Below are positions 3,343 to 27,979 of a stretch of 28,375 bases of DNA, one piece after another. Origin of the DNA: a virus (Duplodnaviria; Caudoviricetes). The notes below the pieces were generated by a model. It ran no database searches, was not told where the DNA came from, and was given only the letters and a program-made list of their open reading frames with translations. Position 1 is the first letter of the stretch. Each line of letters starts with the position of its first letter. The DNA is taken from positions 1-28,375 of the IMG/VR virus record IMGVR_UViG_3300020043_002178; one strand, 5' to 3'. Both the position numbers and the translations under genes were made by a program.

Positions 3343-3698
3343 AAATACTTATACCAGCGATATTAGATAATTACTCACCCAGAAAGGATAATACCTTTAG
3401 TGTTAAGTTTCTTACACAGGAGTTAAGTAATGAGCAATTATTGAATATTAACTCGGCTAGGGATAAGTTTGGGATATTGTATTTCAAAGCTGAATCTGAT
3501 ATAACAAACGAAGAACTAGAAAAGCTTGATGAGGTTGATATTGATATAACCGACAAAAGCAAAACACCATCTAAAAGGATTAGAAGCGTATTGTTCCGTA
3601 ACTGGCAGCAAGACAATAAAGGCTTTACAGAGTTCAAAAATTTTTATATATTTGAAACAGAAAGGATTATCGAACACTATAAAAGTAAATTGGAGTAA
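3339..3698 (+). CDS. hypothetical phage protein upstream of terS
   Basis: ORF track; ATGA and TAATG overlaps with its neighbours. Confidence 0.65.
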   Translation: MKILIPAILDNYSPRKDNTFSVKFLTQELSNEQLLNINSARDKFGILYFKAESDITNEELEKLDEVDIDITDKSKTPSKRIRSVLFRNWQQDNKGFTEFKNFYIFETERIIEHYKSKLE

Positions 3699-4102
3699 TG
3701 GCTAAACATAAATACATAGAATCACCTGAAAAGTTTTGGGACTTATTTGTTGAGTTTAGAGAATTAAAATTATCTCAAAAGATTAAGCAACAAGTAACAT
3801 CGAGAGCAGGAGTAGAAACATTAGAACATACACCACCTCTTACATGGGCAGGGTTTGATGCTTGGTTATATGAGAAGAAAGTTATTACAGATACAGGTGA
3901 TTATAGAACTAATGAGAAGGGGAAATATGACGAATTTTCGGAGGTCATACGCGCAATAACCAATATAATGTACACTCAAAAGTTTGAAGGTGCGAGCGTT
4001 GGCGTGTTTAACGCTAACATTATAGCGCGTGATTTAGGACTTAAAGACAGCACAGAAACAAATCTAAAAGTGGAGCAACCATTGTTTCCAGAAAATAAGT
4101 AG
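3698..4102 (+). CDS. terS: terminase small subunit (P22 gp3-like)
   Basis: PLTWAGF...QKFEGASVGVFNANIIARDLGL, typical of gp3-like packaging proteins; position upstream of terL. Confidence 0.85.
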   Translation: MAKHKYIESPEKFWDLFVEFRELKLSQKIKQQVTSRAGVETLEHTPPLTWAGFDAWLYEKKVITDTGDYRTNEKGKYDEFSEVIRAITNIMYTQKFEGASVGVFNANIIARDLGLKDSTETNLKVEQPLFPENK

Positions 4103-4125
4103 TAGGAGGTACGAAAAATAATACC

Positions 4126-4133
4126 TATATTTG
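4126..4133 (+). promoter_or_regulatory. possible -7 promoter element (TATATTTG) for the HNH gene
   Basis: TAnnTTTG in the terS-HNH gap, 3 nt before ATG 4137. No clear -33 element. Confidence 0.4.
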
Positions 4134-4136
4134 ATT

Positions 4137-4643
4137 ATGGAAAAAAGTATAATTGGATATGAAGGACTTTACACGGTATCAGATACTGGAGTAGTAAAAT
4201 CAACTCCTAGAAAAGGAACAAAAGGAGGTGAAATAAAAGTAATCAAAGATGAATACTATGAAGTAGTGTTGTGTAAAGACATGAAAATGAAAAGATTTAA
4301 TCTTCATAGATTAATAGCTACAGCATTTATTCCGAATCCTGAAAACAAACCACAAGTAAACCATATTAATGGTGATAAATACGATAACAGGATTGAAAAC
4401 TTAGAATGGTGTAATAATTCAGAAAACCAATTACATAGTTACAGAATAGGATTAAGAAAAAGCGTAAGAGGTGAAAAAAATGGCAACGCAAAACTAACAG
4501 ATAAACAAGTTGTTGAAATATATTCAATAATAAAAAGTAGAGGTAAGAACTACGGTAGAAAAGAATTAGCGTTAAAGTATAGCGTGTCTGAATGCACAAT
4601 AAAGGAAATAGCGACAAACAGAAGATACACATCTCATGTTTAG
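4137..4643 (+). CDS. free-standing HNH homing endonuclease (NUMOD4 + HNH + C-terminal HTH-like)
   Basis: IIGYEGLYTVSDTGVVKS (NUMOD4), LHRLIATAFIPNPENKPQVNHINGDKYDNRIENLEW (HNH), GEKNGNAKLT...ELALKYSVS. ATG 4137 is preferred over TTG 4131. Confidence 0.9.
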   Translation: MEKSIIGYEGLYTVSDTGVVKSTPRKGTKGGEIKVIKDEYYEVVLCKDMKMKRFNLHRLIATAFIPNPENKPQVNHINGDKYDNRIENLEWCNNSENQLHSYRIGLRKSVRGEKNGNAKLTDKQVVEIYSIIKSRGKNYGRKELALKYSVSECTIKEIATNRRYTSHV

Positions 4644-5847
4644 AAGAACTACAACAATAGATAAAATTCTGCGGATACAAGCCCGAAAAAAAGTAATACA
4701 GGGCGGTACTTCCGCAGGAATGTAAGCCCCTTTGTGAAAATGAAGGGGCAAAGGAAAAACTTTTGGTATATTGCCTATCTTAATAGATAAGGCTTGCAAA
4801 ACGCCAAACTTAGAAATATCTGTTGTATCTGAAACAATACCACATTTAAGAAGAGGTGCGCTAAAAGACTTCCTTAAAATAATGGTTTGGACTAATAGGT
4901 ATATTGACTCTCATTACAATAAATCACTTTTAACATATCGTTTTGCTAATGGTTCTTACATCGAGTTCTTTAGTGCTGAACAAGAAGAGAAGCTAAGAGG
5001 TGCAAGAAGAAATATTTTGTACATAAATGAGTGCAACAACCTTCCATTTGAAGCATACCACCAACTAGCAATAAGAACAAGCCACGATATTTATTTAGAC
5101 TTTAACCCTACAAATGAGTTTTGGGCGCATACCGAAGTATTGAATGAACCCGATAGCGAACATTTAATAGTTACGTATATGGATAATGAGGCTTTGCCAC
5201 CAAACGTAATAGGAGAAATGGAGGTGGCAAAGAAAAAAGCTGAAACATCTGATTATTGGCGTAATTGGTGGAGAGTGTATGGCTTAGGCTTGATAGGCAC
5301 ATTAGACGGCGTAATATTTCCAGATATTAATTTAGTAGATGAATTTCCAAAGGATTGTAAATGGATAGCTTATGGTCAAGATTTCGGATTTACAAACGAC
5401 CCGTCTGCATTAATTAAAGTAGGTTTTGTAAATGGTGAATTGTGGCTACAAGAAATGATTTACGCTAAAGGCTTAACAAATCAAGATTTAAGTAAGAAGT
5501 ATAAGGAAGTTGGACTAGTTCCTTTAGATGAGATTTACGCGGATAGTGCCGAGCCTAAAAGCATCGAAGAGTTAAAGCGTGAAGGGTGGAGGAACATAAA
5601 GCCAACGCTTAAAGGTAAAGATAGCGTAAATACAGGGATAGGATTAATGCAAAGCCATAAAATAAACATCACTAAGGATAGCGTTAATTTAATTAAAGAA
5701 TTTAGGAATTACCAATGGGAGAAAGATAATGACGGGAAAACTACTAATAAACCTATTGACGACTACAATCACGGAATAGATGCGATTCGTTATGTATGCC
5801 TTATGAAAATATTGAAGAAAAAAAGTTCTGTTGTTAGTTCCTTATAA
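4636..5847 (+). CDS. terL: terminase large subunit (PBSX-like), interrupted by a 36-nt insert in Walker A; 391 aa if the insert is skipped
   Basis: ATG 4636 gives MFRRTTTIDKILRIQARKKVIQGGTSAG, in frame with KTFGILPILIDK from 4756. Walker B ILYINE, DFNP, and nuclease motifs GQDFGFTNDP, DSAEP, NHGIDAIRY are intact. Confidence 0.9.
4717..4755 (+). other. candidate programmed translational bypass element (GGA take-off 4717-4719, GGA landing 4753-4755, 36-nt gap)
   Basis: GGA ATG TAA GCC CCT TTG TGA AAA TGA AGG GGC AAA GGA; hairpin 4726-4749; AGGAA direct repeats at 4716-4720 and 4752-4756. The interruption is directly visible; the mechanism is inferred. Confidence 0.65.
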
Positions 5848-5858
5848 AAATAAAATTA

Positions 5859-5866
5859 TATATTTG
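5859..5866 (+). promoter_or_regulatory. possible -7 promoter element (TATATTTG)
   Basis: TAnnTTTG in the gap between the terL stop and ATG 5888. Confidence 0.45.
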
Positions 5867-5887
5867 TTCCATAACACGGAATAAAAT

Positions 5888-6049
5888 ATGGCACGTCCTA
5901 AAAAAGAGCAAACAGATAACCTAACAATCAAAGAACAGATTGAAGTATTGTTAGAAAACATCGGAGAGGAAATGAAAAAGAAGCCGCAAGATGCAGTTAA
6001 ATACTTTGGCGCTCAAGCAGATATTCGTAGAGCATTAATGAAGCTATGA
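5888..6049 (+). CDS. small hypothetical protein (53 aa; not in the ORF track)
   Basis: MARPKKEQTDNLTIKEQIEVLLENIGEEMKKK...ALMKL*; ATGA overlap with 6046. Confidence 0.65.
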   Translation: MARPKKEQTDNLTIKEQIEVLLENIGEEMKKKPQDAVKYFGAQADIRRALMKL

Positions 6050-6801
6050 TAATCGTATCAATTAACGATAAGCAATACAATGTTTGTAGCGACTGGAAGG
6101 ACGTTACGATATTGCACATTGAAAAAGGCTATGCGCTTAAAGAAAAACTAAGTGAATCACTTAAAAAGTTCTTCTATTCAGCCGATGAATTTTCATTTAG
6201 TAAAGAGCAAGAAGTCGAGTTAATCAAGTTCGAAAAAGAATGGATTGAAATATTTAGCAACATTCCTAAGAATATACTGAACAAAACGGTATTGGTAAAC
6301 GAAGAGGGTGATAATATCACATCGCTATTTAAGTTGTGCCAAAAGTTTATGTATGAGCCGCAACAAAACGAAATAGTAATAAACGAGTGCATAGAGTTTA
6401 AAGGCGTTAAATACTATCTACCAGAAAGCGTGACAAGTGTTAAAGGAGTTAAGAAACTATTTGCTAAGGGAACTTATGAGGAATACATGGAGAGTAGCGC
6501 GCTATTTGATGTGTTTAATGAGAAAGGCGACCTAAGTAAACTATCAAGGCTAACAGCTATTTTATTTCGCCCTAAAATTAAAGTAGGTTTCTTTTGGAAT
6601 AAAAAGGAAGTGATTGAAGAGTTTTATGATGAGAAAGTAAACCAAAGAGCGGAGTTATTTAAACAACTTCCAATGAATGACGTTTGGGCGGCATACTTTT
6701 TTTTTATTCTTTCCAATTGGAAATTGTTAAGCGGTTTTCAAACATCTTTAAAGGAGGCAAACAGCCTATCAAAACTGGAAGCACTAGCGAAAGAATTGTA
6801 A
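6046..6801 (+). CDS. putative tail assembly chaperone (gpG-like)
   Basis: Overlaps a -1-frame ORF across a T9 run (YFFF), the lambda G/GT arrangement. The function is inferred from this architecture. Confidence 0.6.
   Translation: MIIVSINDKQYNVCSDWKDVTILHIEKGYALKEKLSESLKKFFYSADEFSFSKEQEVELIKFEKEWIEIFSNIPKNILNKTVLVNEEGDNITSLFKLCQKFMYEPQQNEIVINECIEFKGVKYYLPESVTSVKGVKKLFAKGTYEEYMESSALFDVFNEKGDLSKLSRLTAILFRPKIKVGFFWNKKEVIEEFYDEKVNQRAELFKQLPMNDVWAAYFFFILSNWKLLSGFQTSLKEANSLSKLEALAKEL
6697..6705 (+). other. -1 frameshift slippery site (T9)
   Basis: TAC TTT TTT TTT ATT in frame 1; the -1 frame is open to 6992. Palindrome TTTCCAATTGGAAA at 6710-6723. Confidence 0.7.
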
Positions 6802-6992
6802 GCAAACTATCATGGCAAATAGAATCGTACAAAATAGCGGAGAAAGGGATATACAACAAGGAAGGATTAACACCAATAGAAAGCGTTAAACGAACAAATA
6901 TCTATGAAATAATGCTTTATACCTCGTTAATGATTGCAGAAGGCACACTACAAGGAGAAAGAATGGAACTAGAATATAAAAAGAAAAAATGA
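6705..6992 (+). CDS. gpT-like extension reached by -1 frameshift (fusion about 315 aa)
   Basis: The ORF at 6684..6992 has only a weak TTG start just before the T-run; its stop overlaps the next ATG (ATGA 6989). Confidence 0.6.
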   Translation, partial: YSFQLEIVKRFSNIFKGGKQPIKTGSTSERIVSKLSWQIESYKIAEKGIYNKEGLTPIESVKRTNIYEIMLYTSLMIAEGTLQGERMELEYKKKK

Positions 6993-7696
6993 TACCGAAA
7001 ATATTAGTAGCCGCCCCGACATCGAACCTTAAAGACTATTGTTTTGATGAGTATGCCGAGCAAGTGAGAAACTTCACCTATCCGCATTACGATATTTTGC
7101 TAGTAGATAATAGCCAAGATAAAAAGTATCATCATAAGATTTTAGAGGCTGGCATTAGATGTATATACCACAAACCGAAAGGAAGCCCGATTGAGTATAT
7201 CACAGAGTGCCAAAACATCATTAGAGGGGTAGCAATAGAAGGCGGCTATGATTATGTGTTGATGTTAGAAAGTGATGTGTTTGTACCTAGAAACATTATT
7301 GAACATATGCTTTGCGGTGGTGCAGAAGTGTACACTATCACATATCTAATCACTAAGAAAGGAAAACACAGCGTTTGTTTACATGGTATGCCTACCAATG
7401 AACTAAGAACCTCAACAAAGGTACTAGAGGAAGATGTAAGCGCGGCCGTTTGGACTGGTGAAATAAAAGATATTAAGCAATTTAAGATAGGCGAAGATTT
7501 TAGACTGTATGGAACAGGGATAGGTTGCACGCTTTTTAAAACATCTGTACTAAAAGAAATACCATTTAGAATCGATAAACAATTTCCTGCTGCATTTTCA
7601 GATTCATATTGGTATTTGGACGCTGAACGAGCAGGAATAAAAACAATTTTAGACACTTCAATAATAGCAACACATAAATCATTTAAAATAAAATAG
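6989..7696 (+). CDS. GT-A fold glycosyltransferase-like protein (family 2-like)
   Basis: ILLVDNS, YDYVLMLESDV, GIGCTL, FSDSYW. Confidence 0.7.
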   Translation: MIPKILVAAPTSNLKDYCFDEYAEQVRNFTYPHYDILLVDNSQDKKYHHKILEAGIRCIYHKPKGSPIEYITECQNIIRGVAIEGGYDYVLMLESDVFVPRNIIEHMLCGGAEVYTITYLITKKGKHSVCLHGMPTNELRTSTKVLEEDVSAAVWTGEIKDIKQFKIGEDFRLYGTGIGCTLFKTSVLKEIPFRIDKQFPAAFSDSYWYLDAERAGIKTILDTSIIATHKSFKIK

Positions 7697-8722: not shown

Positions 8723-9489
8723 AATATATCGTAATTGCACACACTAAAGACTACCACGAAAAGGCAAAGCAGTATCTATACTCTTTGAATAAATACGCAA
8801 AAGACATTAAGATAAGAATTTTGTGCATTGACTTCATGCCCGACAAAAAAGAAGATTGGATAGAATATGCAACCTGCCAATTAACACAACTTCCTTCGTT
8901 CCGTAGAGGTTGGCCACACAATAGAAAGTTTTATGTATGCTTAGAAGGCGGTGATTTTCTACCTTATTTTAAATGGAATGATGATGATGTGATTATACAC
9001 ACAGACAGCGATATGCTTTTGCAACGTCCTTTCGATATTGACGAATTAACTGCACTTGATAATCTACAAACGGGTGAAATTGGCGCGAGTAAATCGGGCT
9101 ATAAATTAACGCTACGTGAGGAATATTGGAGATTGAAGCCTAAAGCTGGCAACGTGTACGCAAAACAATTCTTTCCTGATGGGTGGCTAGAGGAAATGTA
9201 TTGCGCTGGCATCATAGTGGGTCGTGTTGATACGTATAGAATGTTAAGCAAATTCTACCTAGAAAAGATTGATTTAATGATGCACCTATTCGACCACCAC
9301 GCGGCAGGCCAATGGATATTTAACCAAGCTATTCACACAGAATTACAATTGGTTGATTTAACTAGCGTGTTTCATTGTGCGGATTGGTTTATAGATATTA
9401 AGACCGAAAAGAAAGAAGGTAAACTGTACTATAATAACTCAATGTGTTTATTTAACCATACTAAATTTGAAGGAGAATGGACGGTGTAA
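8719..9489 (+). CDS. putative glycosyltransferase (DxD)
   Basis: IIHTDSDML (DxD), YCAGIIVG, QWIFN and late NH; cluster context. Confidence 0.55.
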   Translation: MKYIVIAHTKDYHEKAKQYLYSLNKYAKDIKIRILCIDFMPDKKEDWIEYATCQLTQLPSFRRGWPHNRKFYVCLEGGDFLPYFKWNDDDVIIHTDSDMLLQRPFDIDELTALDNLQTGEIGASKSGYKLTLREEYWRLKPKAGNVYAKQFFPDGWLEEMYCAGIIVGRVDTYRMLSKFYLEKIDLMMHLFDHHAAGQWIFNQAIHTELQLVDLTSVFHCADWFIDIKTEKKEGKLYYNNSMCLFNHTKFEGEWTV

Positions 9490-10145
9490 AAAAAATATGT
9501 TATACCGCTATATTTGGCGAGTATGACGATTTAAAAGAGCCTAAGGTAATTACTGAAGGCTGGGAGTATGTTTGTTTTACAAATAGTCCAAATCTTAAAA
9601 GCAGTATTTGGAATATTGTACAATATAACCCACAAGAAAAGCCACAAAACAAAAGAGAACATTCGTTGATAGCGCGTTTTCTAAAAATTAACCCACATTC
9701 ACAATTTGGCAAAGAAAATGTGTTATCTGTTTGGGTTGATGGTTCGATAGAAATTAACTGTAACCTAGATGAATTTGTAAATAAATACAAAGGCCGCGCT
9801 TTAACTATAATGAAGCACCCAACGCGAAATTGTGTATATCAAGAAGCTAATGCTTGTATTGGACTTAAAAAAGATGATGAAGGCATTATAATATCGCAAA
9901 TGGCAAACTATAAGCACTTGTATATGCCTGAACACGTTGGAATGGTTGCAAGCGGTGTAATTATTAGAAACCACAATGAAGATGTTAATTCATTCTGCGA
10001 AAAGTGGTGGGCGCAGGTTAATAGATTCAGTATTCGCGACCAGCTTTCTTTCAACTTTGTTGCGTGGATTAGCGATTTCAAATATACCGTTATGCCTTTC
10101 GATATACTTCGCAACGAAATGAGAATTAAAAAACATTTGAAATGA
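9477..10145 (+). CDS. DUF616/TOD1-MUCI70-like glycosyltransferase
   Basis: CYTAIFGEYDDLKEP, ARFLKINPH, WVDGS, KHPTRNCVYQEA, RDQLSFNFVAW. Confidence 0.75.
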   Translation: MDGVKKICYTAIFGEYDDLKEPKVITEGWEYVCFTNSPNLKSSIWNIVQYNPQEKPQNKREHSLIARFLKINPHSQFGKENVLSVWVDGSIEINCNLDEFVNKYKGRALTIMKHPTRNCVYQEANACIGLKKDDEGIIISQMANYKHLYMPEHVGMVASGVIIRNHNEDVNSFCEKWWAQVNRFSIRDQLSFNFVAWISDFKYTVMPFDILRNEMRIKKHLK

Positions 10146-20186: not shown

Positions 20187-23183
20187 ATGGCAGAGGAAAT
20201 AGGAATTAAAATAAAGATTGAAGGCGATGCGCAAAGCATTAAAAAAATCCATGATTTACAAATTGGATTAGACCAACTTCAAAAAGAATTAAAGGCAGTA
20301 AACAAAGCCGAGAAAGACAATATAATTACCGCAACGGAGGCTAGTAAAAAACGCGCTGAACTAAATCTAAAAATAGGCGCGACTAGAAACGCTTTACGTG
20401 ATGCTAATGTTGAACTATTAAAACAAAACGATGCGCTTCGTAAATCAACTGGATTAACTGGACTTTTTAAGGATGGGTTAAAAGATATTGGTTCTTCTTT
20501 GGCTACTGCTGCTTTGGGGTTTTTCGCATTAAATAAGGCTATTCAAGTTCTAGGCTCAAGCATTAAGACAATGAAAGAGTTTGAACAACAGATGGCTAAA
20601 GTAAAAGCTGTTACTGGGGCTAATGAAGAGCAATTCACGCAACTAAAGAAAAGCGCAATTGATTTGAGTGGTGCTTTTTCTGCATTAGAGATAGGTAAGC
20701 TGCAAGAAGAGTTCGCTAAACTAGGTTTTACTACTGATGATATTTTAGCTGCAACAGAGGCAACTATACAGCTATCGGTTGCAACTGGTGAAGATTTAGC
20801 TAACTCTGCTAAAACATTAGCAGCTACATTGAATGGGTTTGGACTAGCGGCAACCGATACACAAAAGGTAGTTGATATAATGGCTAAGTCATTTAATGAT
20901 TCGGCTTTAGGCTTAGAATCGTTTAGTAATGCTATGTCGCAAGTAGCACCAGTTGCTAAAGTTGCTGGAAGTAGTATTGAGGAAGCTACCGCATTAATAG
21001 AGGTATTGGTTAATGCTGGTTTTGAAGGTGGAAAAGCAGGAACAGCACTAAGAAAAATATTTATTGAAGTTTCTGAACAAGGATTAAGCCTTGACCAAGC
21101 ATTTAGTCAAATACGAAATTCAGTTGACCCGTTAACAGAGGCAGTTAAATTGTTTGGTGTTGAGGCAGCTTCACAAGCTGTTACATTGGCTACAAATACT
21201 GAAGAGTTAGCGAAGTTTGAGGAAGGACTGAAAAACGCTGGAGGAACAGCAGCGCAGACAGCAGGAATAGTTGGCGATACATTAGCTGGTGATGTGGATA
21301 AACTTTCTGCTTCGTGGGATAAGTTTGTTTTATCAATAGGAAGCGGTGATGGTGTTATCAATCAAGTATTGAGAAGTTTATCACAAGATTTTGCATCATT
21401 ATTAAATTCATTTTCTGATGATACGGTAGATAGAACACTAAGCAGGCTAACTGCAATGAGTGTTAATGGAGTGTTTGACGAAGAAGAGATACGAAGATTT
21501 AATTCAGAGTTTGAATTCTTAGATGAATCAATAAAACTAGCAGCAGGAAGCGTAACGAAATTAAAGTTTGAACAACAAGCATTAAATAACGATATTGCTA
21601 GGTTTACTGAAGAATTAAAAAACACTAAAGACGAAGATGCGATAGAGGTTTTAAATGGTAAAATAGCCGTAAGAAAACAGCTTTACAGAGATATAAATAA
21701 AGAAATAGAGAAAGCCAAAAAAGTAGAAACAGAAAAAGCTGAAGCAGAAAAAAAAGCAGCAGACCTTAAAAACCAACAATTACAAATAGAGAAGGCGTTT
21801 ACTGCGCAAATAAATAAAGAATCTGTTTCACAGTTAAAAGCAAGATTAGAGCAAGAAGTTAGCGAAGAAGAAAAAGCGATAATTAAAAAAGCGTTAAAGA
21901 GAAAAGAGGCTGCTGAAAAAGAACTAGAGGAACGTAAAAAAGCGAATGAAAGCGTATTATCTGAAACGGTAAAGCTAAATGCTGCACTAGAAGAAAACAC
22001 GCTGCAAAGAACGCTAAAAGAAATAGAGATTGAACGCGATGCTAATATTAAAAAGATTGAAGAAAGTAAAGCGAATGAGAAATTAAAGGCTGATGCAATA
22101 AATGCTATAAAGGCAACCGCGTTAAATAAAGAAAAGAAAGCGAGGGAAGTTGATTCTAAAGAGCAGTTCGATAAAGAGTTAAAAGCACTAGAAGAGCACA
22201 ACAAAGCGCTTGTATTATTAACTGAAAACGGAAGCAAAGAAGAGCAAGAAGCGCAAGTAAAAGCAATTGAAGCTAAAAGAGATTTTGAGTTACAAAATGC
22301 TGAACTAACTGCCGACCAAAAGATAATAATCGAACAAGAGGCGGCCGATGCTATTGCGGCTATAAACAAAACAACAGCCGATAAACAGATAGAAGAATCA
22401 AAAAGAGTTGAGGAAGCTAAAAGAGAAATACTACAACAATCAATAGAAGTTGCGAGTCAATTCGCTACTACATTAGTAAACTTAGCAGGACAAAGAGCCG
22501 ATAGAGAAAAGCAAATTGAACTAGATAATTTAAAGGCTAAGAACGAGCAAGGTTTAATAACGCAAGAAGAGTATGAAACAAAGAGAAAAGAGATAGAAAA
22601 GAAAGCGTTTGAAGATAAAAAGAAAAGAGATTTAGCTTTTGTTGCTATTGAACTAGCAAAACAAATTGTATCTATTCAAACTGCGGCAGCTGCCAATCCT
22701 TCAAACGCCGTAACATTTGGAGCGGCTGGTATTTCGCAGGCTGCAATATTAACTGGTTTGGCTGTTGCAAGTGCTGGTATTCAATCGGCAGCTATTTTAA
22801 GCCAGCAATTCGCAGAAGGTGGTTATACTGGTGACGGGTTCGGTAAAAAGGATAGTACAGGATTTAAACAAGCTGGGGTAGTTCACGAAGGTGAGTATGT
22901 TGCGCCTAAGTGGGTGCTAGGTACTCGCGAAGGTTCTGAACTTGTTAATAGATTAGAAAGTATTAGAACAGGGAAACCGAATTTAGTTCCTAACTTTGGC
23001 TATGCAAATGGAGGTTTCGTGAAGCAACAGCAAGCGCAATTAAATATGGATGAAATGGAGTTTAGAATTACGAAAGCCGTAGTAAACTCAATAGGTGCTA
23101 TTCCTGTAATAAATAACGCAGTAGATACGGCAAACGTAGCGCGTAAAGTAAGTAATGTACAAGCACAAGCAACTTTTGGATAA
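20187..23183 (+). CDS. tail tape measure protein
   Basis: 998 aa, Ala-rich; TP901-type core (FEQQMAKVKAVTGA...AGTALR), long E/K coiled coil, C-terminal FAEGGYTG...GVVHEGEYV. Confidence 0.92.
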   Translation: MAEEIGIKIKIEGDAQSIKKIHDLQIGLDQLQKELKAVNKAEKDNIITATEASKKRAELNLKIGATRNALRDANVELLKQNDALRKSTGLTGLFKDGLKDIGSSLATAALGFFALNKAIQVLGSSIKTMKEFEQQMAKVKAVTGANEEQFTQLKKSAIDLSGAFSALEIGKLQEEFAKLGFTTDDILAATEATIQLSVATGEDLANSAKTLAATLNGFGLAATDTQKVVDIMAKSFNDSALGLESFSNAMSQVAPVAKVAGSSIEEATALIEVLVNAGFEGGKAGTALRKIFIEVSEQGLSLDQAFSQIRNSVDPLTEAVKLFGVEAASQAVTLATNTEELAKFEEGLKNAGGTAAQTAGIVGDTLAGDVDKLSASWDKFVLSIGSGDGVINQVLRSLSQDFASLLNSFSDDTVDRTLSRLTAMSVNGVFDEEEIRRFNSEFEFLDESIKLAAGSVTKLKFEQQALNNDIARFTEELKNTKDEDAIEVLNGKIAVRKQLYRDINKEIEKAKKVETEKAEAEKKAADLKNQQLQIEKAFTAQINKESVSQLKARLEQEVSEEEKAIIKKALKRKEAAEKELEERKKANESVLSETVKLNAALEENTLQRTLKEIEIERDANIKKIEESKANEKLKADAINAIKATALNKEKKAREVDSKEQFDKELKALEEHNKALVLLTENGSKEEQEAQVKAIEAKRDFELQNAELTADQKIIIEQEAADAIAAINKTTADKQIEESKRVEEAKREILQQSIEVASQFATTLVNLAGQRADREKQIELDNLKAKNEQGLITQEEYETKRKEIEKKAFEDKKKRDLAFVAIELAKQIVSIQTAAAANPSNAVTFGAAGISQAAILTGLAVASAGIQSAAILSQQFAEGGYTGDGFGKKDSTGFKQAGVVHEGEYVAPKWVLGTREGSELVNRLESIRTGKPNLVPNFGYANGGFVKQQQAQLNMDEMEFRITKAVVNSIGAIPVINNAVDTANVARKVSNVQAQATFG

Positions 23184-23386
23184 TGCTAGTAAGTGACGAA
23201 GAATATAATAAGCGTTTAGAGATTTGTGCCAATTGCGAATTAAGCAAGAAAGATGCAACTTTTCTAAAAGGAAGTATTAAATTTAAAAACAAATTACAAT
23301 GCGGTGTTTGTAGCTGCTTCATTAGTGCTAAAGCATTATTCGAGGCCGCTAAATGCCCACATAAAGACGGCAATAAATGGCAATAA
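23183..23386 (+). CDS. small Cys-rich, putative Zn-binding protein
   Basis: RLEICANC...CGVCSC...KCP...KW. Confidence 0.7.
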   Translation: MLVSDEEYNKRLEICANCELSKKDATFLKGSIKFKNKLQCGVCSCFISAKALFEAAKCPHKDGNKWQ

Positions 23387-23607
23387 AGTTAAGCGTAACT
23401 GATAGGGTAAACGCGATACCCATCGAAGAAAAGCAAAAGATAAAAGAGGCGGCTAATAAAATAGCTGGCAAAATGCAACCCGATGCGCAAGCATTACGAT
23501 TTTTATTCGAAATGTTTAACAAACATATTCACACGTACGATAATAAATGCGGTGAGTGCAGAAAGCACGTAAGAGATTTTTGGATTAACACAAGTAGTAA
23601 ATGGTAA
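23377..23607 (+). CDS. small hypothetical protein with CxxC
   Basis: KCGECR; overlaps both neighbours. Confidence 0.6.
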   Translation: MAIKLSVTDRVNAIPIEEKQKIKEAANKIAGKMQPDAQALRFLFEMFNKHIHTYDNKCGECRKHVRDFWINTSSKW

Positions 23608-23870
23608 ACAAAGAAACATTAAAAAAATACCTTCAACAGAGAATAGAAGGACGGAACATTGATGAAATAGTTTTATTGCTAGTAGATACTTCTATGGCCG
23701 ACTTTCAAACACTTAGAAATCATTGCATAGTAAAGGATTTTGAGGCCATGTATAAGATGCCAGCAGTATATAAAACAAACCAATCTATCTACGATGATTT
23801 GTGTTTCAAATGGGATATATCCTACACGCATTTAAAGCGAATAATTGCGGACAAAAATAATAGGGTATAA
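23601..23870 (+). CDS. small protein with a possible C-terminal HTH (Mor-like)
   Basis: QSIYDDLCFKWDISYTHLKRII helix-turn-helix pattern. Confidence 0.5.
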   Translation: MVNKETLKKYLQQRIEGRNIDEIVLLLVDTSMADFQTLRNHCIVKDFEAMYKMPAVYKTNQSIYDDLCFKWDISYTHLKRIIADKNNRV

Positions 23871-23937
23871 AATATCGCCCAAAAAATGAACTAACAAATT
23901 TTATATTGTATAGTAATATTACCACAAAATTATATTT

Positions 23938-24957
23938 GTGAGTAAATTACTAAACATAAAAAACCAAACAGCCGATTCAATCGATTTATTGATTGATACC
24001 GAAATAGGCTCTTATGGTGTTTCTGCTAAAGGATTTATTTCAGAGGTTAAAAACGCAGGAGTTAAGAATATCAACCTAACTATTAACTCAGTAGGTGGAA
24101 GTGTTTTTGATGCTTTTGCGATTTATGACTTTTTAGTTTCTCCTCAAAATAACTTTAATGTATCTGTAAAAATCGAAGGTTTAGCGGCTAGTGCTGCTAC
24201 TATTATCGCGTTGGCTGATAGAAAGAAACCTAAGATGACAGAAAATAGCTTCTTTATGATTCACAACCCTTCATTGTTGGTTATGAACTTTTCAGATATG
24301 GAAGCAAGTGATTTAAGAGAGCAAGCGAAAGAATTTGAATCAACTGCTGACTTCTTAGATTCTATTAAAAATAGATTGGCTTCTATTTATTCAAATATAA
24401 CTGGAAAAAATAAAGCTAAAATCAATCAAATGATGGATGATGAAACATGGATGGATGCACAAGAAGCATTATCAAATGGTTTTATTTCATCAATTGAAAA
24501 AGGTGTTGCTATTGCGGCTATGGCTGATGAGCAAACGCTTAAAAAGTACGGCTATAATAAAGCATCATATATTAACAATAAAACCAATTCAGAAATGGAT
24601 AACAAAGTACAAGAACTAATAACTTCATTAAAAGAGGTTGTTATGAACTTTGGCAAAAAGCCAGAAGAAGTTCAGAATGTTGTTACTGAGGTTAAAATCT
24701 TAGATAACGAAGAAGTAAAAAATAAAATTGCTTCAATCGAAAGCGTAATTGCATCGCATGAAACAGAAGTTAAAAACAAGATTCAAGAAATTGAAGATTT
24801 GAAAAACAAACTTTCTGCTTTAGAAGATGAAAACGCTCTTTTGAAAGCAAGTAAATCAGAAATACCAGCAGCGCAAAATACAGCTAATACAGAGCCTCAA
24901 AACTCAGAAAAAGGTGCATTTGCTCAATGGTTAATTAAAGCGGCTCAAAACAGATAA
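23938..24957 (+). CDS. ClpP-family prohead protease with a C-terminal scaffold-like coiled coil
   Basis: INSVGGSV, GLAASAAT (Ser), FMIHNP (His), ETWMDAQEAL..GF; GTG start; directly upstream of the capsid gene. Confidence 0.9.
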   Translation: MSKLLNIKNQTADSIDLLIDTEIGSYGVSAKGFISEVKNAGVKNINLTINSVGGSVFDAFAIYDFLVSPQNNFNVSVKIEGLAASAATIIALADRKKPKMTENSFFMIHNPSLLVMNFSDMEASDLREQAKEFESTADFLDSIKNRLASIYSNITGKNKAKINQMMDDETWMDAQEALSNGFISSIEKGVAIAAMADEQTLKKYGYNKASYINNKTNSEMDNKVQELITSLKEVVMNFGKKPEEVQNVVTEVKILDNEEVKNKIASIESVIASHETEVKNKIQEIEDLKNKLSALEDENALLKASKSEIPAAQNTANTEPQNSEKGAFAQWLIKAAQNR

Positions 24958-24980
24958 TAACAATTTAATAAATAATCAAG

Positions 24981-26000
24981 ATGGCAAATTTAATCGCAAC
25001 CAGTTTTTCGCACACGTACGCAGGAGTTGAGTACTTGTCGCAATTATTCTACAAACCTCAAGAGGGTAGAGATAACGTATTCGCTAACTACAAAGTTATG
25101 CCAAACGTTAAAACAAAAATTAATCTTTATTTACCAGGCACTTTAGCTAAAGTTGTTCGTGCTTACACTACTTGCGGTTTTTCTGCAACTGGTGGAACTA
25201 CTACAATTACAGATAGAGTACTTGACGTAAACAAAGTAAAAGTAAACTTAGAAGAGTGCGTTGACGCGGTATTCGATACTGTATTCGAAGAAGCAATGAA
25301 AGCAGGTGTGCAAATCACTGACCTTTCAGGTACTATCATCGAAACAATCGCAAGAACAAAAGTAGTTGAAGCAATTAAATCGGACGTTGGCCGTATCGCT
25401 TGGTTCGGTAAGTCTGGTGCTGTTTCTGCTGACTACTCAATGGCTGATGGATGGGTTGAGTTGTTTATCGATTCTTCTGCTACTCTTGGACAGTTCTTCA
25501 ATATGGATTCAAGTTCATACGAAAGTTCAGGTACTTTGGTAACAAACGGTGCATACAACGCATTGAAATATATGTACGAAAACCAAACTAAGGTTTTACG
25601 TCAAGTTGCTAAAAAAGACAAAGCTTTCTATGTAACAGCTACGGTAATTGATAACTTAACTACTACTTACGAGCAATTGGGTACTGGTAACAACCTAGGA
25701 TTAACTATGTTGATGGATGGTAAACAATCGTTGATGTTCAGAGGTATTCCATTAATCGAAGTAACTGGTTGGGACACTGACTTAGCAGATTCTGACAATC
25801 CACAAGCTGCATTCGTTGGTGATAACATGATTGTTTTAACAATGAAAGACAACTTGGTAATTGGTACTGATGTAACAGACCCAAGCGCAGAATTGAAATT
25901 CAGATTTAACGATGATGATGATGAGAAAATGAAAATCACATCTAAGTTCAAAATCGGTTTCCAAATTATTCACCCAGAATTAGTATCATTCGGCTACTAG
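24981..26000 (+). CDS. major capsid protein
   Basis: 339 aa after the protease; FRGIPLIEV and NLVIGTD; codon choices of a highly expressed gene (frequent GCT, GGT, TTC, AAC). Confidence 0.8.
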   Translation: MANLIATSFSHTYAGVEYLSQLFYKPQEGRDNVFANYKVMPNVKTKINLYLPGTLAKVVRAYTTCGFSATGGTTTITDRVLDVNKVKVNLEECVDAVFDTVFEEAMKAGVQITDLSGTIIETIARTKVVEAIKSDVGRIAWFGKSGAVSADYSMADGWVELFIDSSATLGQFFNMDSSSYESSGTLVTNGAYNALKYMYENQTKVLRQVAKKDKAFYVTATVIDNLTTTYEQLGTGNNLGLTMLMDGKQSLMFRGIPLIEVTGWDTDLADSDNPQAAFVGDNMIVLTMKDNLVIGTDVTDPSAELKFRFNDDDDEKMKITSKFKIGFQIIHPELVSFGY

Positions 26001-26012
26001 GCCGAGTGATAC
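25983..26012 (+). other. 12-bp RNA hairpin with the capsid stop codon in its loop
   Basis: GTATCATTCGGC-TACTAG-GCCGAGTGATAC (one G-U pair); no U-tract follows. Confidence 0.65.
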
Positions 26013-26033
26013 CATTCTACAAAACTTTAAGAT

Positions 26034-26603
26034 ATGGCAAATATTGATGAAGATATTTTAATCACGTGCGCGGACGAAAACCGTAGAGGCGGCATAAAAC
26101 GCGTGTTCTTGGCAAATGCCGATAAGATTACTTCTTTTACACCAAGCGGAACAAATCACAGTTATACTTCTGTAACTATGGATTCAACCGCTGATGAATG
26201 GTTCGAAGTACAAGGTGAGTTCGAGAAAAAAGTATTAACTGGTGAAGGTTCTATCGAGAATGGTTCATCTGTAAGTACAAACACTTTAACTATCCATGTT
26301 CCGAAAATTGAGAAAGTAAAAGGTAATGCAATTCAAGAATTGTTCAACTCATGTAAAGTAGTTGCGATTGTTGAAACATATACCGACACTGGAACTTACA
26401 ACCAAGCGTTAGTTATTGGTTACGATGATATTTTAGGCGTTGACGCTGGTTTAAGAATGTCAGTAAATCAATCAATTGAAGGTGAGTTGCAAGGATTAAA
26501 CGGGTACGATTTAACCTTTACTGGTAAATCTGCTGAAGTTTTCCGCGAGTTTGTTGGCGCAATCACTAGCAATAGTTCAGGTTCTGTGAGCTTTGGTTCA
26601 TAG
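26034..26603 (+). CDS. putative major tail tube protein
   Basis: 189 aa, beta-rich; C....GGIKRVFL and NGYDLTFTG; followed by a terminator. Confidence 0.65.
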   Translation: MANIDEDILITCADENRRGGIKRVFLANADKITSFTPSGTNHSYTSVTMDSTADEWFEVQGEFEKKVLTGEGSIENGSSVSTNTLTIHVPKIEKVKGNAIQELFNSCKVVAIVETYTDTGTYNQALVIGYDDILGVDAGLRMSVNQSIEGELQGLNGYDLTFTGKSAEVFREFVGAITSNSSGSVSFGS

Positions 26604-26625
26604 TTAAATAGTCAATAATAAAATT

Positions 26626-26659
26626 AGGGAGAATCGTAAAAAAGTTCTCCCTTTTTTTT
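26626..26659 (+). terminator. intrinsic terminator
   Basis: AGGGAGAA...TTCTCCCT stem running into a T8 tract (26652-26659). Confidence 0.8.
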
Positions 26660-26666
26660 AAATTTG
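26659..26666 (+). promoter_or_regulatory. possible -7 element (TAAATTTG) for the portal gene
   Basis: TAnnTTTG starts at the end of the terminator T-tract, 5 nt before ATG 26672. Confidence 0.4.
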
Positions 26667-26671
26667 TTGTT

Positions 26672-27979
26672 ATGGTAGAAGGCACAAAAAAACATAACGT
26701 AAAAGCATCTTCTTTAGTTCTTGTAGATACTAATGTAAAGCAGGAGAAAAAGAATGAGCAAAGCGTTTCAGATACCCCGTGGATTCCGTTTTTCAAAGAT
26801 TCAAACAATATTTATATCAATGATTTAGCTTTACGCGCTAGACGTTCTCCTGTTCATGGCTCAATCATTAGAAGTAAGATTTCTTATGCTTGCGGTCAAG
26901 GATTTGAATTCAAGGTAAAAGGCAAAGAATATAAGTTCGATGAACTAGATATTAAATACAAAAAATGGTTTCAGCAATGCAATGCGGATGGCCAAAGTTT
27001 TAATGATGTGTTTCGCAATATAATGACAAACTTTATAATGCTTGCAAATGCTTATCCTTGGGTTGTTAGAACAGCTAGAGATGGTGTGTTTGGCTTGTAT
27101 AGTGAAGATGGTACAAAGGTTAGAATATCAAAGGATAAAAAGAAAACATATCGCTCTTCATTTTGGAGAGAGAATTTGAACAATAAAAGCGTAAGCAAAG
27201 ATACGCCGATTGATAGCGATGTTGATTTATATAGAGGCATCAAAACGCAAAGAGAGTATTTAGTACACATCAAACAATACTATCCTGAATTCGATTACTA
27301 CGGAATACCTGAATATATACAGGCTTTAGAATGGGCAGACGTTGAGTATAATATTCCTAGATTTAACAACAATAAGTTTAAAAACGGGTTCTTTCCTAGC
27401 GCATTAGTGCAATTGTTTTCTAATCCACCTGAAGGAATGGAAGCAGAGGATTATGTACGTAAAATAGTGAATAGATTTAGTGGTGAAGATAACAACAGCA
27501 AGATAATTGTTGAAATGTTAGATTCCCCTGAACAAGCTGCTAAAATACATGAGTTTGGAAGCGGAAAGGATGGCGAATTTATCGACTTAGATAAGTTAGC
27601 TACAGAAAACATTATATCTGGCCATAGATGGTCATCAGCTTTAGTTAAAGAAACGGGCGGTAAATTAGGAGGCAATCAACAGCTTATTAATGAGTATCAA
27701 AAAGTAATGAACGGAGTTGTAGTGCCTGACTTTCAAACGCCAGTATTAAGAGAAGTTAATAAGATATTGAGCCGAGAATTTAACGAAGATATAGAGATTA
27801 GTATTATTCAATTAGCACCGCTTGGTGTTGATTCAAATATTGATGTTAATGCTGTTATGACTATTAACGAAGCGCGTGAAAGAATAGGTTTAGAATCGTT
27901 TATGGAAGAGGGAGAAGAAAGAGGAAATGAATTGGTGAAGAGTACAAACAAACAAAACACTTCTAACAATGGCCTTTAA
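26672..27979 (+). CDS. portal protein
   Basis: SPVHGSII..K..Y..GQG, YYGIPEY, FKNGFFPS, FSGEDN, IISGHRW, MTINEARERIGL (HK97-like portal motifs). Confidence 0.85.
   Translation: MVEGTKKHNVKASSLVLVDTNVKQEKKNEQSVSDTPWIPFFKDSNNIYINDLALRARRSPVHGSIIRSKISYACGQGFEFKVKGKEYKFDELDIKYKKWFQQCNADGQSFNDVFRNIMTNFIMLANAYPWVVRTARDGVFGLYSEDGTKVRISKDKKKTYRSSFWRENLNNKSVSKDTPIDSDVDLYRGIKTQREYLVHIKQYYPEFDYYGIPEYIQALEWADVEYNIPRFNNNKFKNGFFPSALVQLFSNPPEGMEAEDYVRKIVNRFSGEDNNSKIIVEMLDSPEQAAKIHEFGSGKDGEFIDLDKLATENIISGHRWSSALVKETGGKLGGNQQLINEYQKVMNGVVVPDFQTPVLREVNKILSREFNEDIEISIIQLAPLGVDSNIDVNAVMTINEARERIGLESFMEEGEERGNELVKSTNKQNTSNNGL

Follow-up and report, generated by a model that had tools for sequence, protein, structure and literature searches.

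A hairpin-bearing gap in a phage terminase gene: a probable programmed bypassing element in a homing-endonuclease cassette

How might a phage make a terminase from a gene whose catalytic motif is broken by stop codons? In the window, by which we mean the whole 28,375-nt stretch of DNA analysed here (a linear 28-kb virus fragment, 76% complete), the gene for the terminase large subunit, terL, carries 36 nt with three in-frame stops (TAA, TGA and TGA) between two GGA codons, inside the Walker A motif (GGTSAG|KT). Comparison with homologous loci makes it probable that a hairpin in these 36 nt is the core of a programmed translational bypassing signal, carried in a homing-endonuclease cassette. 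We also consider it likely that such inserts form a bypass family analogous, not homologous, to that of T4 gene 60 and mobA.

The interrupted terL gene

Read from the ATG at 4636, the terL frame gives ...QGGTSAG M * A P L * K * R G K GKTFGILPILID..., and joining the pieces on either side of the gap would yield a TerL of 391 aa (Table 1). The genes for the terminase small subunit (terS), a NUMOD4-HNH nuclease and TerL follow one another in that order. The insert is not an assembly artefact, because positions 4705-4818 are covered, insert included, by a 114-nt contig of an independent freshwater run, gapless and with four differences. No second terL match was found in the window by tblastn; the statement that terL is single relies on this search, since PF04466, searched against the window, failed to pick up even the known gene.

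Table 1. Features around the terL gap in the window
Feature	Position	Strand	Basis
Terminase small subunit gene; 3' end is the left cassette border	3698..4102	+	PF16677 E 1.9e-8, phrog_606
Inferred mobile cassette with nuclease gene, its own copy of terL's first codons, and gap	4093..4751	+	contig joins
NUMOD4-HNH gene, predicted homing nuclease, overlaps terL start	4137..4643	+	PF13392 E 2e-11, PF07463
terL first piece, 28 codons, ends ...QGGTSAG	4636..4719	+	matches N-terminus of intact homologues
5' stem-loop within the coding sequence; three helices, 16 bp	4667..4719	+	fold of 4636-4760, z -5.6
Predicted take-off codon GGA (Gly)	4717..4719	+	reading frame, codon-phased match
6-nt spacer ATG TAA, with the first of three in-frame stops	4720..4725	+	sequence; spacer length conserved across inserts
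Gap hairpin, 10 bp, GAAA loop	4726..4749	+	fold, homologue loops, covariation
A-rich tail	4750..4752	+	sequence; tails 79% A/U across types
Predicted landing triplet GGA	4753..4755	+	reading frame, codon-phased match
terL second piece from the Walker A lysine on, 363 codons	4756..5847	+	PF04466, PF17288

The closest cultured relatives of this TerL come from Flavobacterium phages (52% identity), with Bacteroides phages next, and two carriers of the insert lie on short contigs binned with Bacteroidota; we infer a host in this phylum. In FPSV-S2, the record with the closest cultured TerL, terL is intact. No cultured carrier phage was found, and DNA searches of 50,697 phage records returned no useful matches. 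Among 401 genomes of the phylum of genome G002 there were three strong TerL matches, two of them new, with frames that stay open over 408 and 410 aa. Among the genes just after terL, 9477-10145 encodes a glycosyltransferase-like domain (PF04765) and 6989-7696 a second one as judged by eye, with no Pfam match. About 21 kb from terL, the gene order at 20187-27979 is tape measure, Clp-type protease, likely capsid gene and portal.

Anatomy of the insert family

Of 600 confirmed relatives found by protein similarity only, the best 80 comprise 74 intact ones and six with an insert at the Walker A site. Further loci came from pattern scans, some without a hairpin requirement and others in which CCCC had to lie 4-12 nt downstream; a degenerate pattern made from the hairpin of the window itself matched 0 viral contigs. 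A TerL match was present in 381 of 495 sequences; parsing succeeded for 378, of which 128 are intact and 250 carry an insert. Three TerL sequences were dropped from parsing, and one of them, L464, likewise has an insert. The 250 insert loci include many duplicates from the same contig and collapse to 80 unique gaps and 32 types; the types share ancestry, and counts by type are not independent.

Every one of the 128 intact homologous loci keeps the Walker A spacing GGT-x-x-x-KT (8 residues), so that exact removal of the gap is needed. Across the 32 types the insert measures 32-50 nt and falls in all three frames (13, 9 and 10 types), shifting the frame in 19 of them; by unique gaps, 44 of 80 are multiples of three. 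An in-frame stop is present in 79 of the 80 unique gaps, and the remaining gap shifts the frame. The parts come in a set order, namely take-off codon, U-rich spacer, C-run/G-run hairpin, A/U-rich tail and landing triplet. The preliminary description proposed that folding would bring take-off and landing sites together; what is conserved is how far the stem lies from the take-off codon. In 31 of 32 types the C-run starts 6-7 nt past this codon, as it does in 88 of the 90 insert loci that came from scans made without a hairpin requirement.

The gap hairpin

The hairpin at the centre of the window's gap reads GCCCCTTTGT-GAAA-ATGAAGGGGC. It lies directly after the TAA at 4723-4725 and ends 3 nt short of the GGA at 4753, as the preliminary description had stated, and its ten pairs (five G-C, three U-A, two G-U) agree with the earlier tally of seven plus one Watson-Crick pairs and two wobbles. 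Its minimum free energy is -14.6 kcal/mol, it makes up 92% of the ensemble, and with z -5.06 it was equalled in stability by none of 200 shuffles; the minus strand reaches only -10.0 kcal/mol. Folding found no structure 3' of the landing triplet (z -0.76), the window sequence has no U-run behind the stem, and no Rfam family matches positions 3500-6500 at E<=1. The hairpin is the single match to CCCC-N8..24-GGGG in the window. Such a motif appears in 13 of 100 shuffles and is not rare by itself, and the argument for selection therefore depends on the homologues.

The homologues bear out the earlier proposal that selection acts on RNA of the coding strand. Across types the hairpins have 6-15 contiguous base pairs with a median fold z of -4.0, and the plus strand folds better than the minus strand in 30 of 32. 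In 18 tetraloop hairpins aligned on their loops, 7 of the 10 pairs have changed on both sides, and the covariation score is 0.81, compared with 0.21 when shuffled and at most 0.28 when slid. We chose these 18, out of the 36 (of 80) unique gaps whose loop has 4 nt, and registered them on their loops ourselves, so that the percentage of paired positions in this set is circular. Within types, stem substitutions comprise 8 double changes, 5 single changes that keep the pair and 2 that break it. RNAalifold on a MAFFT alignment of 40 inserts gave three consensus pairs and zero covariation, a poor result because the stems were out of register, and the loop-centred alignment replaced it.

Two further features to which a role had been given fared differently. 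The GNRA loop is there in the window, as GAAA, but as a requirement of the family it does not hold: by type the loops are GNRA in 10, UUCG in 2, UUAG in 2 and other in 18. Since it is found in only 10 of 32 types, the GNRA loop is an optional stabiliser. The suggestion that the 3' arm (AAGGGG) acts like a Shine-Dalgarno (SD) sequence for landing, as a mini-SD, finds no backing. The distance from G-run to landing triplet varies from 1 to 16 nt, the G-run is accounted for by its pairing with the C-run, and a GAG- or GGAG-like word lies within the expected window in only 8 of 32 types. Likewise, an SD-like word precedes only 2 of 37 genes of the window, and ribosomes of the inferred host group are reported to sequester the anti-SD (PMC7797042; PMC10798248).

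The upstream stem-loop

A second structure, which like the linked nuclease goes unmentioned in the preliminary description, lies in the coding sequence before the gap, and its 3' arm ends in the take-off GGA. Against synonymous shuffles the window's 5' stem-loop has z -7.3, and it is built with the phage's rarest codons (CGG, 1 of 181 Arg; CTG, 8 of 439 Leu; TCC, 4 of 366 Ser). A 5' fold with z<-2 occurs in 28 of 40 carrier clusters (median -3.1) as against 5 of 59 intact clusters (median -0.2). Judged by these folds the 5' stem-loop marks insert carriers, with 12 of the 40 carrier clusters showing no significant fold. The last codon before the gap is paired in 13 of 40 carrier clusters compared with 9 of 59 intact ones; with only 13 of 40 paired, hiding of the take-off codon is not general.

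Take-off and landing codons

What marks the far end of the gap? In 31 of 32 types the last triplet of the insert equals the take-off codon at positions 1-2 or is related to it by a G-U wobble. By type, the first two bases at take-off and landing are GG>GG in 13, GC>GC in 8, GC>GT in 6, TC>TC in 4 and GC>AT in 1, and the six GCN>GTN types are compatible with G-U wobble of the anticodon. Identity at codon positions 1, 2 and 3 is 31, 25 and 7 of 32, and falls to 10 of 32 at offset -1 and 5 of 32 at offset +1. Codons identical in full occur in only 12 of 80 pairs, and the third bases often differ beyond standard wobble, for example GGT/GGA. Because the match is confined to codon phase, it is hard to ascribe to a DNA duplication or a splice signal, neither of which would end at a wobble position. 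The pair switches together among Gly, Ala and Ser, and where take-off has shifted from an Ala or Ser codon to the next Gly or Ser codon the hairpin has shifted too. Mismatched pairs are L407 (GCG>ATA) and L171 (TCG>GCA). The proposed bypass frame, from GGA to GGA in the window, is thus backed by codon-phased matching across types.

The codon that follows take-off is not fixed. It is any of 19 different codons in the 32 types, TTA in 3 of them, and a stop is the first codon after take-off in 1 of 32 types and the second in 16 of 32. As this codon is usually an ordinary sense codon, pausing would have to come from structure.

Related inserts in other genes

A scan for the spacer-hairpin motif gave 67 matches, 41 at the terL Walker A site and 26 elsewhere. 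In a second TerL family (YGGAAGGGKS) the insert sits at two Walker A codons with Ala or Gly pairs; the loci are L506, L542/L574, L549/L571 and L551/L575, and an HNH gene lies upstream of L574. In a third, Terminase_1-type family (L511/L568, L557, L564 and L565) it sits just before Walker B, with TGT>TGC (Cys). The remaining off-site matches are intergenic, in-frame or unclear by appearance; L561, L533 and L517 are more motif matches, in genes or spacers.

The hairpin design also occurs in motif B of family B DNA polymerase (PolB) of large phages (L577-L649; for example L570:1495-1546 and L569). Of 73 PolB loci, 10 were unparsed; among the other 63, 40 carry an insert and 23 are intact. The inserts lie at six motif B codons (Ala, Leu, Val, Gly, Ser and Tyr), and the spacer rule derived from terL yields an intact PolB motif in 29 of 29 distinct inserts. 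Take-off and landing match at positions 1-2 in 22 of these 29, and all seven mismatches fall at the Tyr site, where 7 of 9 distinct inserts are unmatched (AAC four times, AGC, CAA and GAC). The Tyr site is the strongest result against strict codon matching, and landing may be partly positional. With two HNH/GIY-YIG profiles, no nuclease was detected within 1450 nt upstream of the 73 PolB loci.

The Tyr-site inserts would require no tRNA match if the gap were a micro-intron, excised from the mRNA by a nuclease and ligase or by a trans-acting ribozyme that reads the two hairpins. Two stems around a fixed 6-nt linker could serve such an activity as a ruler, and the inserts are located in conserved catalytic motifs, which introns typically occupy. 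We nevertheless regard excision as unlikely. The end bases are not conserved, the match is limited to codon positions 1-2, and no Rfam match was obtained; with a 3' tail of 1-16 nt and no conserved ends, the codon match alone marks the 3' junction. A group I or II intron or an intein was considered and rejected: the window's gap has 36 nt, three stops and no Rfam match, and 32-50 nt is too short for either group of intron.

Loss of the gap in some molecules, at the DNA level by replication slippage over the hairpin or by skipping of RNA polymerase, could likewise supply terminase. A hairpin between short repeats favours deletion, and AGGAA is repeated at both ends of the gap in the window. Across types, however, the repeat is 2 nt and codon-phased, the G-U pairs favour the coding strand, the 5' stem-loop at synonymous sites is given no role, and precise loss from DNA would purge the element. 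We consider this explanation very unlikely.

Selection on terL

The terL gene is under purifying selection in carriers, as estimated from substitution rates. For the second piece, the median dN/dS is 0.037 in carriers (61 pairs) and 0.042 in intact genes (52 pairs), and the first piece is constrained as well (mean dN 0.07, dS 0.46). Of the 184 carrier loci with enough sequence, 179 have an open second piece and 5 (2 contigs) a broken one, which occurs in 0 of 107 intact loci. The carriers with a broken second piece are L118/L423 and L150/L366/L493, which may reflect error, decay or a second insertion. Six loci have no Met in the start window and have Leu or Val there.

These values weigh on the view that terL is dead, in decaying prophages or in phages complemented by a helper, with a hairpin that is terminator-like or parasitic. 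Such a view would fit the two carrier contigs with a broken second piece and the lack of a cultured phage with the insert among those found, and a window record 76% complete allows a second terL outside it. A dN/dS like that of intact genes, the constraint on the first piece, the open second piece in nearly all carriers and a stem with no trailing U-run make it highly improbable. Readthrough of the stops, a reassigned code, or two chains with a restart past the hairpin would suit the in-frame gap of the window and of the 44 unique gaps noted above, but is extremely improbable given the frame shift in 19 of 32 types. Readthrough was rejected, since it would need TAA, TGA and TGA to be read and 12 residues to be added to a P-loop of invariant length; restart was rejected, 1 of 32 types having a start codon that precedes the Walker A lysine in the frame of landing.

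Nuclease linkage and mobility

The programmed bypassing that we favour would be carried by a mobile cassette. Contigs in three of five DNA runs connect 4092 to 4752; by arithmetic, the record lengths imply 79 letters between these points, the size of an intact terL start, and the joins may stem from other organisms. No joint in the DNA contigs removes the gap alone, and such contigs show presence, not absence. One RNA run gave 0 records, which is evidence neither for nor against expression. ORFs upstream of many carriers are NUMOD4-HNH or GIY-YIG-like, with GIY-YIG Pfam scores below the cut-off. With profiles built from the carriers' own upstream ORFs, a nuclease was detected upstream in 39 of 102 distinct carriers, leaving 63 in which none was detected, compared with 2 of 90 intact loci, both of which belonged to the profile training sets. 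After clustering at 80% the figures are 16 of 33 and 1 of 28 (p 1e-4). L008 and L034 have an intact terL with an HNH or GIY-YIG-like gene upstream, the insert being absent.

The insert has a patchy distribution among relatives, as read from its presence on a TerL tree (FastTree, 124 proteins), which forces at least 17 gains or losses. Its state is also clustered on the tree, with 24 changes compared with 41 when shuffled. Four pairs, the closest that differ in having the insert, share 72-80% identity over the first 81 nt of terL and 87-97% in the DNA downstream; the lower similarity of the terL start indicates that the N-terminal codons travel with the gap. The cassette likely spreads with the neighbouring homing endonuclease.

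Discussion

We propose that the ribosome would make MFRR...GGTSAG and bring tRNA-Gly into the P site on the GGA at 4717. At that point the C-G-rich base of the gap hairpin would reach the mRNA entrance and cause a pause, and the peptidyl-tRNA would detach from its take-off codon. Exiting mRNA would refold as the 5' stem-loop, pushing the ribosome forward and hiding the take-off codon; forward drive of this kind is the model of Wills, Parsawar and Atkins (10.1101/2024.12.09.627546). The gap hairpin would then pass through, and the anticodon would scan the short A/U tail and re-pair at the GGA at 4753. Decoding would restart at AAA (Lys), restoring GGTSAGKT. Ribosomes that decode the ATG instead would stop at the TAA and release a 29-residue peptide. 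Since terminase is probably needed in small amounts, a modest efficiency of bypassing may be enough. By analogy with MobA, the carrier's nuclease would cut intact terL during mixed infections, and the insert would protect the carrier itself against it.

Do the inserts in terL and PolB belong together? We lean slightly towards a widespread bacterial family of portable bypass elements, built from two hairpins and a roughly matched triplet and used by unrelated HNH and GIY-YIG nucleases. If this is true, jumps of 32-50 nt could take place at almost any codon, with no fixed stop, SD or special peptide, and the targets would be catalytic motifs of aquatic phages' terminases and DNA polymerases. Homing nucleases would have an added route into conserved motifs, a fourth way of occupying catalytic ones besides introns, inteins and split genes. 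Essential phage genes annotated as broken or truncated would also be suggested to be functional. A second, independently built phage bypass family would show which signals are truly needed: take-off residue, gap length, loop and stop position vary naturally, and the spacer and the two stems are constant. Two open models, forward drive by exiting mRNA and docking of the hairpin in the A site, could be tested in a 90-nt cassette.

Comparison with known systems

For T4 gene 60 and the yeast-mitochondrial byps, programmed bypassing over long distances is an established fact. In the largely open-access literature searched on bypassing, coding gaps, terminase, homing nucleases and byps, we found no description of the terL insert family. 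In the main text of a 2022 preprint, from which the word terminase is absent, the T4 bypass element is reported only in topoisomerase genes, and the T4 cassette is called unique (Manning and Atkins, 10.1101/2022.08.31.505936).

The closest parallel is T4 gene 60 with MobA (10.1101/2022.08.31.505936; PMC7026636). As there, a non-coding gap lies in a conserved phage gene, take-off and landing codons match with the third base free, a 5' stem-loop accompanies a gap stem-loop with UUCG or GNRA tips, and the 3' part is A/U-rich. The element shares with MobA that it moves together with an HNH nuclease and brings its own N-terminal codons, and that the nuclease is often lost or swapped for GIY-YIG; both systems have a homing endonuclease in one cassette, here the HNH gene at 4137-4643, whose cutting activity is predicted. 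The T4 element splits the topoisomerase large-subunit gene, with N- and C-terminal extensions; here the site is Walker A of terL (and PolB). The T4 take-off codon lies within the 5' arm of the gap stem, whereas here that stem begins 5-6 nt later in 26 of 32 types, and the window's take-off codon lies, unlike that of T4 gene 60, in the 3' arm of the upstream stem. T4 has a stop or rare codon right after take-off, and here there is usually neither (in the window ATG, then TAA). The T4 mini-SD stands about 6 nt before landing; here no mini-SD is fixed (8 of 32 types). The T4 gap is 50 nt, as against 32-50 nt, and the take-off residue here is Gly, Ala or Ser, with Cys, Leu, Val and Tyr at other sites. 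As to a nascent-peptide signal like that of T4, the N-terminal columns in 43 carriers broadly resemble those in 56 intact genes, though Thr at -8 and Gly at -3 show some shift. In its predicted action the terL insert works like T4 gene 60 and MobA, but it is not a member of that family, because target gene, stop position, stem placement and SD differ.

The byps of Magnusiomyces capitatus (Lang et al. 2014, as cited in 10.1101/2022.08.31.505936 and PMC7026636) are likewise hairpin inserts, of 27-55 nt, at many sites and in many genes, and the mitochondrial byps share loose codon matching, an A/U-rich 3' part and no SD. The inserts described here have a byps-like spread over several genes, with three TerL families and PolB, but only one C-run/G-run match in the window. 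Byps depend on a sense codon without a tRNA after take-off, a position filled here by the 19 codons counted above. The terL inserts are also unlike byps in their bacterial host, their phage genes, their link to homing nucleases and their single copy per gene in conserved motifs.

In Streptomyces phage phiHau3, too, a block of non-coding sequence within a terminase gene that is essential has been proposed to be bypassed (PMC10732093). Its blocks are of 7-10 nt, triggered by a rare UUA and with a proposed regulatory role, in contrast to the 32-50 nt hairpins here; the TerL family is another one, and the trigger codon is not fixed, TTA coming first in just the 3 types mentioned. Finally, the gap hairpin resembles the frameshift stem-loops of dnaX and HIV, in which a stem of about 11-12 bp lies 5 nt behind the recoding codon (PMC8861025). 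The dnaX element (5-nt spacer, 11-bp stem) slows translocation, pauses ribosomes and can dock in the A site (PMC8861025). These signals direct a 1-nt backward shift on a slippery heptamer (PMC8861025), whereas the terL inserts have no slippery run and are predicted to carry the ribosome 32-50 nt forward.
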